In this document: in pieces, positions 16,238-18,759 of the stretch
Layout of the letters: every line of letters starts with the position of its first letter
Position numbering within the stretch: the first letter of the stretch is position 1
From: a virus
Direction: 5' to 3' (one strand)
Virus record (IMG/VR): IMGVR_UViG_3300016665_000619
Coordinates: 1 to 64,000 of that record
DNA: 64,000 nt
The notes under the pieces: model-generated
Told to the model about the DNA's origin: nothing
The model's input: the letters and a program-made list of their open reading frames with translations, nothing else
The model's database searches: none
Made by a program: the position numbers and the translations under genes

Positions 16238-16567
16238 TCAATCTTTACCTGGTAGAATAAGCGAAGGAGTGTTAGAACGTTCTAGTGTTGGAGATACTGG
16301 GACGTTTTTTCTATTTTCTCCAATGGCTTTAACAATTGATTTCATTGCTTTGTTATCTTCCAGTTCAAGAGATAGGAGATAGATGATATAAAGCATTTGA
16401 CGTTGGGATACGCCAAACTTACGTATTTCCATAACGATATCTCTACAGTCTTTACGTTTACTAACTGGTAGTTCAAGTTCGATATTAGGCTGAATATATT
16501 CTTCGCCTTCTTGTGCTTCTTCTGTTAGGAGACTATCCCATTCACCAGTTTTATTTTCCTCTGTCAT
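16238..16567 (-). CDS. hypothetical protein
   Basis: ATGA-coupled to the upstream gene. Confidence 0.75.
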   Translation of the reverse strand: MTEENKTGEWDSLLTEEAQEGEEYIQPNIELELPVSKRKDCRDIVMEIRKFGVSQRQMLYIIYLLSLELEDNKAMKSIVKAIGENRKNVPVSPTLERSNTPSLILPGKD

Positions 16568-17034
16568 ATCATTCCTTCTTCTCTTTCAAATGATTTAATA
16601 TCATAAATGGTTTCACCAAGAATGACAATATATTTTCCTATAATGGTTGTTCCTTCTCGTTCTTGAGAAAGATTGAATCCCCTGCCCCATAGACCATTAG
16701 CTATAATGAACTGAGCTTCCTGCCAGTATGGCAGGTCACATTGATTTTGTTCTAATATAGAGGCTAATCTGGGAGGTAAGGATGATTTAATATCATCTAT
16801 GGTTAATAGAGCATTCATATTCTCTTTACGGAGAACGATGCTTTTGCTTATTTCATTTATCTTATGAATAACGCCGCAGTTATTGCATTGAGCATATGAT
16901 GGAACGACTGAACCATCTGCCGTATTAATTTCTGAGAATACTAAGAACTTATGAAAGACAGGTGGTTCTACGTTCTTATATTGAGGAAGAACGCATTTAC
17001 ATTCAAGGAGATGTTTTACATAATCTTTGGTCAT
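16564..17034 (-). CDS. hypothetical zinc-ribbon protein
   Basis: ECKC...QCNNCG pairs. Confidence 0.75.
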   Translation of the reverse strand: MTKDYVKHLLECKCVLPQYKNVEPPVFHKFLVFSEINTADGSVVPSYAQCNNCGVIHKINEISKSIVLRKENMNALLTIDDIKSSLPPRLASILEQNQCDLPYWQEAQFIIANGLWGRGFNLSQEREGTTIIGKYIVILGETIYDIKSFEREEGMI

Positions 17035-17476
17035 AGGAAGAATTGGATTATATAAAAGGCTATGGAAGAAATGGTAGTAGTAGCGCCAAAATATTTAGCG
17101 GCACGTTTCCATTTCTCCCGTTTTTTTTGCTGTTGATATTCCTCGAGTTCGGTCAGCCTACCGTCCGAGCTCTCTTGGATTTTCCCGGCGTTCTGTCTTT
17201 CCCTGTAGAGAGCCCAGCATCCAAAGGGTTTTCTTGATCCGTAAGTTCTGTAAGATCCTTATCAAGTTTACCCATGTATCGATCTATAGAAGTCATAAAT
17301 CCATTATCGATTGCAGTTCGGAATATATCAAGAACCACAGTAAGTTGCTCTCTATCAATTTCCGGATGCTTCTTGCGAACCGTAAGAACCGTAAAATCTA
17401 CGGCTGATTCTTTAATTTCATTAAGAAGTCCGTGAATATTTTTTTCAATAGCTGTTTCTAAACGTTTGCGATCCAT
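17031..17476 (-). CDS. putative -1 frameshift product (~148 aa) with C-terminal membrane anchor
   Basis: In-phase slippery A_AAC_CCU / C_CCU_UUG at 17231-17222, 11-bp downstream stem, start-less -1 frame open to a TGA overlapping the next ATG. Confidence 0.65.
17153..17476 (-). CDS. hypothetical protein (0-frame product of a candidate -1 frameshift gene)
   Basis: GAGGAG RBS; 107 aa. Confidence 0.8.
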   Translation of the reverse strand: MDRKRLETAIEKNIHGLLNEIKESAVDFTVLTVRKKHPEIDREQLTVVLDIFRTAIDNGFMTSIDRYMGKLDKDLTELTDQENPLDAGLSTGKDRTPGKSKRARTVG

Positions 17477-17485
17477 ATTGTCTCC

Positions 17486-18058
17486 TCAAATTGTTTCTTT
17501 AACCCTAAGTTTTCTTTTTGTATGTCTATCTGCAATACAGTTAGCAGCATACGATTCGGGTTTTAAAACACAATCATAACCAGAGGATATTACATAACCT
17601 TTAAGTTGTTCGGAAAATGAGGAAGTATATTCTTTTTTAATAGGCGCAGAGGCATCAACATGACAGACTGGTTTTATTCCAGTTTGTTCCATGATCATAT
17701 TGGCAACTTCTATAGTTCTACTTACTTCTTCAAACATTCTCATTTTTTGGTTTGAATCGCCGTAAGAATGGCGTCGAACATATTCTGATTTATAGTAATA
17801 TGTTCCGCCCTTACCACGCTCCCAAAGGGCTACTACAGTAATATAGAAGAGATATTTACCACGATGTTGACTATCTGTGCCTACAGCTATTTCGCATTCT
17901 TTGTTATAGCGTAGCCTCGCAATATGTTCTAAGACCTGAGAGGTTTCAAAACGATGCTTGGCACCGGGGCATTTCCAGAGAGAACTGTAGGTATTGTTTA
18001 TGTCTACTTCTTCTTCAAGATCGTTAACTGTTTCTTTTAATGCTGGAGACATAATCAC
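17486..18058 (-). CDS. RNase H-like YkuK (DUF458) family protein
   Basis: IAVGTDSQ, RMFEEV..T, HVD, KP.SYAA..IADRH. Confidence 0.85.
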   Translation of the reverse strand: MIMSPALKETVNDLEEEVDINNTYSSLWKCPGAKHRFETSQVLEHIARLRYNKECEIAVGTDSQHRGKYLFYITVVALWERGKGGTYYYKSEYVRRHSYGDSNQKMRMFEEVSRTIEVANMIMEQTGIKPVCHVDASAPIKKEYTSSFSEQLKGYVISSGYDCVLKPESYAANCIADRHTKRKLRVKETI

Positions 18059-18759
18059 CTTTCCTCGTCCTCGGGATCATCGGGACGCACATCGATTTTT
18101 GACCATGTATTTGGTCTTTCTTTTGATTTCACAAAGAAATTTGATTTTACATAACCGCATAGATAACCACGACACATATCAGGTCTTTCCTGATAAATAT
18201 TGCACATACCATTTAGGTTATTTAAGAATTTACAAGCAAAATGCGGACCTTCAATTTGCATTCTCATAATTGGATAGGATTCTTTTTTTTCAAAAATTTC
18301 ATGACCTTTAAAGAAATTTCTTCCAATCAATACACCTTCTTCATAGTCAATCACTATATCTTGGCGTGTCACATTGATTCCACGCTTTTTAAACCATTCA
18401 ACAATTTTCTTAATCCACTTTTCATCTAATGGTCCAAGAACGTGCTCTAGCTGATCTGGATTTAATCTACAACACATAGCTTTAGTTCCAGGTATGCCAC
18501 AACAATTGGAAAGACAAGTTTCCATAGCCTTTTTATCTGTCCAATGTTCTCTTTGGGAATTTGGCTTTGGAGGATGCATATCCATGTGATTAAGATATAC
18601 TACAGGAAGATAAAATCGATTTTCTTTCTTGAGTTCTCTTAATTCTTCTTTTGAAACGTTTTGTTTCTTATGGTCAGAATCCAAAACAATATCTTTTTCT
18701 GCATCTTGTTCATACAAGTCTTCAATTGATATTGTTCTTACTGTTTTAGTTGTAGTCAT
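18055..18759 (-). CDS. YkgJ/CxxCxxCC-family Zn/Fe-cluster protein
   Basis: C...CC...CC and CKFL....GMCNIYQERPDMCRGYLC. Confidence 0.8.
   Translation of the reverse strand: MTTTKTVRTISIEDLYEQDAEKDIVLDSDHKKQNVSKEELRELKKENRFYLPVVYLNHMDMHPPKPNSQREHWTDKKAMETCLSNCCGIPGTKAMCCRLNPDQLEHVLGPLDEKWIKKIVEWFKKRGINVTRQDIVIDYEEGVLIGRNFFKGHEIFEKKESYPIMRMQIEGPHFACKFLNNLNGMCNIYQERPDMCRGYLCGYVKSNFFVKSKERPNTWSKIDVRPDDPEDEER

Follow-up and report, generated by a model that had tools for sequence, protein, structure and literature searches.

A gene of 107 codons in the window (the whole 64,000-nucleotide stretch of viral DNA analysed here) very probably carries an unannotated programmed -1 frameshift outside the tail-chaperone context, and its sequence predicts two products, a soluble protein of 107 amino acids and a C-terminally anchored form of about 148 amino acids. 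The anatomy of the site can be read directly from the sequence and is deeply conserved. Recoding of this kind is a known mechanism; what is new is the gene family, the predicted addition of an anchor in a phage, and the way slippery sites have replaced one another. Members of the family occur widely in uncultured giant phages and form 84 clusters at 50% identity.

Two overlapping reading frames in the window

The IMG/VR virus record that holds the window is 91 kb long and was judged to be only 24% complete, which indicates that the window is a piece of the genome of a very large phage. The gene lies in a minus-strand block of five genes (window positions 16238-18759) situated amid plus-strand, structural-looking genes. 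Successive genes of the block overlap by 4 nt, and their order is a CxxCxxCC protein (PF03692), an RNaseH-like DUF458 protein (PF04308), the frameshifted gene, a zinc-ribbon-like gene, and a gene encoding an acidic 109-amino acid protein. A first-pass annotation of this DNA had placed the candidate frameshift outside the setting of tail-assembly chaperone genes, and the neighbours bear this out, as they are the PF03692, PF04308 and zinc-ribbon-like genes and none of them has a PHROG tail match.

The 0-frame open reading frame (ORF) occupies positions 17476-17153 on the minus strand, as do all of the features that follow, and is preceded by a GAGGAG Shine-Dalgarno (SD) sequence at 17487-17482. 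The proposed slip site, AAACCCUUUG, is a slippery decamer, A_AAC_CCU_UUG, at 17231-17222 that encodes Asn83-Pro84-Leu85. It comprises two X_XXY_YYZ heptamers, A_AAC_CCU (17231-17225) and C_CCU_UUG (17228-17222), which overlap and have C_CCU in common; a third heptamer, G_GGA_AAA, is found at 17186-17180. The -1 frame is closed upstream by a TAA at 17261-17259 and is then open from 17258 to 17031, a run of 75 codons that contains no ATG, GTG or TTG. The -1 extension itself (17228-17031) consists of 65 codons and a TGA. It encodes a linker followed by a basic Lys/Arg cluster (17126-17094) and a hydrophobic C-terminal segment of 20 residues (17093-17034), and its TGA stop codon (17033-17031) shares bases with the following gene's ATG (17034-17032), in the sequence ATGA. 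This downstream gene (17034-16564) encodes the zinc-ribbon-like protein, of 156 amino acids. The 0-frame stop, a TGA at 17155-17153, overlaps the CTG Leu codon of a conserved -1-frame motif, L-T-E-L-E, and occupies the identical alignment column in 12 of 12 sequences of the close clade. The transframe product of the 107-codon gene, if made, would be 148 amino acids long by translation. The coordinates first assigned to the 107-codon ORF, the heptamers, the TAA, the open -1 frame and the ATGA overlap all proved correct when checked against the sequence and its translation. We note that a run of eight A residues at 17121-17128, within the Lys codons of the basic cluster in the -1 ORF, is likely an indel-prone spot; at this run the window is one codon shorter than its closest relatives.

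Conservation of the -1 frame and of the slippery site

Relatives of the 107-amino acid protein were collected with a word-index search, which returned 40 proteins of 90-122 amino acids, and with a profile search, which returned the 84 clusters at 50% identity (60-147 amino acids); four longer, multi-stretch matches of 323-716 amino acids were left out of the length range of this set. From viral, metagenome and genome collections we fetched 43 loci, a set that covers the most distant relatives only sparsely; one of the 43 is the window's own region, and 33 non-redundant loci among them carry a relative of the 107-amino acid protein. Neither this protein, nor the -1 peptide, nor the 156-amino acid neighbour belongs to a family in Pfam, PHROGs or NCBIfam; DNA and protein searches of 50,697 deposited phage records returned no relative, and the ESM Atlas gave no usable match.

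A -1 ORF of 29-80 codons that spans the 0-frame stop and encodes a hydrophobic C-terminal end is present in 32 of the 33 non-redundant loci, at identities down to ~35%, and in the one remaining locus (L042) an equivalent anchor ORF lies in the +1 frame. Further upstream in these genes, stops make up 11.6% of the -1-frame codons, and an open -1 run of the median length, 64 codons, has a probability of ~4e-4 per locus. No ATG, GTG or TTG precedes the anchor in 22 of the 33 ORFs. The first-pass annotation had described a -1 frame that lacks a start of its own and stays open across an apparent intergenic gap, a description that is upheld in the window and extended by the -1 ORFs of 32 of 33 loci; a promoter and terminator scan of the apparent gap found nothing, and one RNA sequencing run gave no coverage. 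Past the 0-frame stop, pairwise differences between loci fall on the three -1-frame codon positions at frequencies of 0.20, 0.19 and 0.375, a periodicity which indicates that the "gap" is translated, as part of the -1 frame. Variation across codon positions is nearly flat inside the overlap, and -1-frame selection is therefore not separately demonstrable there.

All 32 of the -1 products have a hydrophobic tail preceded by a Lys/Arg cluster. The maximum Kyte-Doolittle (KD) score over 17 residues within the last 30 residues ranges from 1.45 to 3.3 across these products; in the window's clade the tail is only moderately hydrophobic (KD 1.49 in the window, which ranks at the weak end). None of the homologs of 60-147 amino acids in the profile-search clusters has an anchor in frame. 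In addition, the -1 peptide, alone or fused, is absent from a protein database of 5.8 billion clusters, which indicates that it has never been annotated.

Alignment of homologs had been suggested as a check on the frameshift; where the -1 ORF is retained, that is in 32 of 33 loci, each overlap between the two frames contains at least one in-frame X_XXY_YYZ heptamer, compared with 20 of 2442 codon positions upstream. Even very short overlaps hold a heptamer, including those of L018 (16 nt), L041 (25 nt), L024 (28 nt), and L020 and L038 (37 nt each). The sequence C CCT TTG is nucleotide-invariant in 28 of the 30 loci of the window's clade, the exceptions being L028, which has C CCT TTT, and L021, which is without the motif. 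At least 17 lineages that are less than 85% identical in nucleotide sequence keep C CCT TTG (one as C CCT TTT), and the codon ahead of CCT TTG always ends in C. Flanking synonymous sites vary freely, with a third-position difference of 0.35 upstream. The site is conserved beyond what the protein sequence requires, as CCT and TTG are fixed though they are minority codons in this phage (29% of Pro codons and 17% of Leu codons, respectively).

The A_AAC part of the decamer is not universal, and CCT TTG is preceded by CTC in L015, by GAC in L019 and by AGC in L020. A distant clade (ENPT: L035, L036, L037 and L040) reads GAA AAC CCT ACN, keeping A_AAC_CCU and not UUG. Lineages without CCCU have other heptamers: A_AAA_AAA in L021, C_CCA_AAA_AAG in L038, right where its -1 ORF begins, and U_UUU_UUA within the 25-nt overlap of L041. 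In several loci stop codons bracket the site: L020 has a -1 stop immediately ahead of CCC, L011, L012, L036 and L040 have one immediately ahead of AAA CCC, and in L018 the 0 frame ends two codons past TTG. Stops of these two kinds, in the -1 frame upstream and early in the 0 frame, confine the shift to the stretch around CCCU. Directly after the slippery site the -1 frame encodes a conserved motif, P-F-G-x-W. The core common to the CCCU-containing sites is C_CCU, on which tRNA-Pro would re-pair from CCU to CCC. Two of the three heptamers initially proposed, A_AAC_CCU and C_CCU_UUG, are conserved, one or the other according to clade, through their C_CCU core, whereas G_GGA_AAA is confined to near relatives. 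In Escherichia coli, which may not be the host, C_CCU_UUG and A_AAC_CCU both induce shifting to a moderate degree only. When assayed in E. coli, C_CC.U_UU.G shifts at a frequency of more than 0.1% without a stimulator and is under-represented in genes, and C_CC.U is one of six shift-prone tetramers in this organism (Sharma et al., PMC4066793).

RNA structure and competing explanations

A stem of 11 bp with a 31-nt loop (17217-17207 paired with 17175-17165) had been read, together with the heptamers, as a canonical frameshift signal. The stem does exist in the minimum-energy fold; it is not conserved, and there is no covariation in 11 relatives. Its stability is no better than that of shuffled sequence (z = -0.33), and across the 11 close relatives 76.1% of cells pair, compared with 75.7% in column shuffles; relatives pair the 5' arm of the stem with a nearer or another partner, or not at all. 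Folding of the related loci revealed no conserved stimulatory structure at the canonical spacing of 5-9 nt, no conserved SD-like stimulator was found upstream of the slippery site in these loci, and no frameshift element in Rfam was matched. On average the 50 nt that follow C_CCU fold more stably than shuffles (mean z -1.4, n = 27 loci), compared with values of ~0 for two upstream control windows. Strong hairpins lie 5-10 nt past the heptamer in L005, L009, L015, L036, L037 and L039, and the clade of L003, L004, L022 and L026 has no nearby structure after the heptamer. These results point to possible structures downstream of the site that differ from lineage to lineage, and not to one conserved element.

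In L003 (2817-2860), as well as in L004, L022 and L026, a hairpin of ~11 + 7 bp, CAAAAAGAGCG...CGCUCUUUUUG, encloses the 0-frame stop. All four sequences keep it, and a few substitutions at its tip are compensatory; it lies ~38 nt past the heptamer, too distant for a canonical stimulator of CCCUUUG. In the close clade, a hairpin that surrounds the 0-frame stop is weakly supported.

The main rival to a frameshift is separate initiation, in which the anchor would be a small protein of its own, made by initiation or reinitiation at a non-canonical start such as the CTG in CTGA at 17156-17153. We regard this as quite unlikely. The 0-frame TGA of the close clade does always overlap the -1-frame CTG Leu codon, L021 has TTGA at that place, and in L042 an AAGGAG is followed 4 nt later by a TTG ahead of the anchor ORF. 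CTG is, however, a very poor bacterial start codon and no SD stands in front of it; there is no YTG at the stop in L003, L016-L018, L022, L024 or L029; and in L036-L038 and L040 only 13-16 codons are left after the 0-frame stop, not enough to encode an anchor protein. Separate initiation would also leave unexplained why, at every locus, the open -1 frame reaches back as far as the slippery motif and why that motif is fixed at synonymous sites. A genuine frameshift that occurs elsewhere, at G_GGA_AAA (17186-17180) in the window's clade or at several sites, and not at AAACCCUUUG, strikes us as improbable. Heptamers of the type G_GGA_AAA/G are efficient in bacteria, this one is kept in the nearest relatives, and the overlaps of many loci contain extra A-rich heptamers, but neither L009 and L015 nor any other clade has G_GGA_AAA, whereas CCCU is present almost everywhere, bracketing stops put the shift at CCCU in L018, L020 and L024, and P-F-G-x-W is conserved in the -1 frame straight after AAACCCUUUG.

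We give hardly any credence to the idea that the two frames reflect transcriptional slippage, an indel introduced during sequencing or assembly, or decay of the gene. Runs of seven or eight A residues in the overlaps of L021, L032 and L035-L038 could support slippage by the polymerase, but the homopolymers of CCCTTTG are too short for this to be plausible. As for an indel or decay, the same two-frame layout recurs in more than 30 independent, deeply diverged assemblies, and purifying selection acts on both parts of the sequence, which argues against a gene in decay. The possibility that an indel error had separated the frames, raised with the original proposal, is specifically excluded by the agreement of those assemblies, by contigs from a second sample that are identical to the window with no indel, and by the indels of a relative, which keep both frames. 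Stop-codon reassignment was likewise rejected, as readthrough of the 0-frame TGA would yield a short, non-hydrophobic peptide that ends at a TAG.

Predicted products, probable coupling and relation to known recoding

An AlphaFold2 model of the 107-amino acid protein, built from a 77-sequence alignment, is a two-helix hairpin (helices at residues 3-36 and 42-82) with an overall pLDDT of 87, the helices exceeding 90 and the tail scoring ~60. The helical-hairpin domain thus spans residues 3-82, the basic tail formed by residues 83-107 is disordered, and in this model the shift site coincides exactly with the boundary of the structural domain. Searches with the hairpin fold gave weak, non-specific matches only. 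In several distant clades the C-terminus of the short isoform consists of basic residues and, after them, a motif of alternating hydrophobic residues such as K-K-V-S-F-S-L or V-S-F-S-L (for example L032:1570-1599 and L035:1520-1545, and proteins P0056, P0067, P0086, P0095 and P0104). Judged by their sequence, such ends of the 0-frame products suggest a C-terminal docking motif or degron proper to the short form. These motifs suggest that each isoform has its own C-terminal function, which agrees with the flat variation in the overlap.

From these features we infer the slip and its efficiency, insertion of the longer product into the membrane and coupling to the next gene. Ribosomes translating the 107-codon ORF would meet A_AAC_CCU_UUG at the end of the helical-hairpin domain, where most of them presumably stay in frame, add a basic tail of 22 residues and stop at 17153. 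A fraction would slip back by one base, with tRNA-Pro moving from CCU to CCC and, with it, either tRNA-Asn moving from AAC to AAA or tRNA-Leu from UUG to UUU. Shifted ribosomes would then read 63 more codons in the -1 frame, to give a product of 148 amino acids in which the common N-terminal domain is followed by a linker, the Lys/Arg cluster and, at the C-terminus, a hydrophobic helix. Such a form is predicted to be tail-anchored with its N-terminal domain in the cytoplasm. Only shifted ribosomes would terminate at the ATGA, and they would probably drive translation of the next gene, the amount of which would be tied to that of the anchored isoform.

The 156-amino acid gene follows the anchor ORF in the window and in all 26 related loci examined, and has invariant residues C12, C14, C50, C53, H28 and H57 (CxC ... 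CxxC). It is better conserved than the frameshifted gene. Its AlphaFold2 model is confident (pLDDT 91.6), and a fold search with this model found no significant relative, the best match being PAS-like, with a Z of 3.8, over residues 84-156. An SD of at least 4 nt precedes the 156-amino acid gene in 4 of 24 loci, compared with 23 of 24 for the upstream gene, and in the window it has none. Across loci the ATG of the gene overlaps or abuts the -1 stop. This arrangement, and the lack of an SD in 20 of 24 loci, suggest that translation of the 156-amino acid gene is probably coupled to frameshifted ribosomes. More tentatively, the frameshift might serve giant phages as a dosage device that both sets the anchored share of the protein and meters the SD-less zinc-ribbon gene. 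The slip, centred on tRNA-Pro at CCCU, would then be usable both ways, with L042 shifting by +1 and nearly all other lineages by -1; we think this extended reading possible and somewhat doubtful. Were it true, one recoding event would fix the stoichiometry of a membrane-bound two-protein module.

Two loci depart from the common layout. L042 (positions 1439-1633; IMGVR_UViG_3300013121_000045) reads AAA CCC TTT in its 0 frame, whereas its anchor ORF is in the +1 frame. This layout is compatible with tRNA-Pro slipping by +1, from CCC to CCU, and equally with an independent TTG start behind AAGGAG. L043 (positions 900-1940; PBIO01000025.1) is a 101-kb contig from a metagenome-assembled genome labelled Halobacteriovorax sp., a predatory bacterium, in which the gene order is the RNaseH-like gene, a gene for a shorter small helical protein of ~73 amino acids, and the zinc-ribbon-like gene; an anchor ORF is missing. 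Either a phage has been mis-binned here or the contig hints at the host.

Canonical -1 frameshift signals include A_AAA_AAG of dnaX, those of IS911 and the IS3 family, and G_GGA_AAG of the phage lambda G/GT genes. As in these systems, the site described here is a 0-frame X_XXY_YYZ heptamer within an overlap whose -1 ORF has no start of its own, it is conserved at synonymous positions, and two products with a common N-terminus are predicted. It differs in that the heptamer is C_CCU_UUG or A_AAC_CCU and not of the A_AAG type, that no downstream hairpin or pseudoknot and no upstream SD stimulator is conserved, and that the gene does not encode a polymerase subunit, a transposase or a tail chaperone. 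Unlike the G/GT tail chaperone genes of phages, it does not lie between the genes for the major tail protein and the tape measure, and its -1 extension ends in a predicted hydrophobic anchor.

The flavivirus NS1' frameshift (West Nile and Japanese encephalitis group) uses Y_CCU_UUU followed by a pseudoknot. C_CCU_UUG is almost identical to this heptamer, pairing tRNA-Pro with a UUN codon in the same way, and L028 has exactly C_CCU_UUU; CCCUUUG itself has been discussed for West Nile virus (PMC3574045). The flavivirus signal differs in operating on the eukaryotic ribosome, in an RNA virus, and with an essential, conserved pseudoknot, where none is conserved here. A change in membrane association by recoding is exemplified by E. 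coli copA, in which a -1 frameshift truncates a membrane protein to give a soluble chaperone. Switches between soluble and membrane forms are also made by a -2 frameshift in arterivirus nsp2TF and by transcriptional slippage in Ebola virus GP (PMC5009743). Our gene resembles all three in that a change of frame at a fixed site is predicted to give isoforms that differ in membrane association, and is the opposite of copA in that the shift is predicted to add a C-terminal anchor to a soluble domain. A literature search found no phage example of a soluble/membrane switch made by recoding. The Listeria phages PSA and A118 use +1 frameshifts at CCC_UGA and ACA_CCC (PMC5009743). There tRNA-Pro slips on a run of C in a phage gene to give a C-terminally extended product, as is predicted here, but the products are capsid and tail proteins and the shift is +1, whereas -1 is the rule here and the putative +1 layout is restricted to one locus.

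Most of the frameshifts documented in phages affect genes for tail-assembly chaperones and capsid proteins, and the present case, if real, is an instance of conserved phage recoding in another functional setting. It would mean that every gene caller has missed ~40 codons of coding sequence per genome and, with them, a predicted membrane-anchored isoform. The family also provides a natural series of interchangeable slippery sites that could be used to learn which heptamers work without a conserved stimulatory structure. The case also suggests that a frameshift can govern how translation of a downstream gene is coupled to that of the gene before it.
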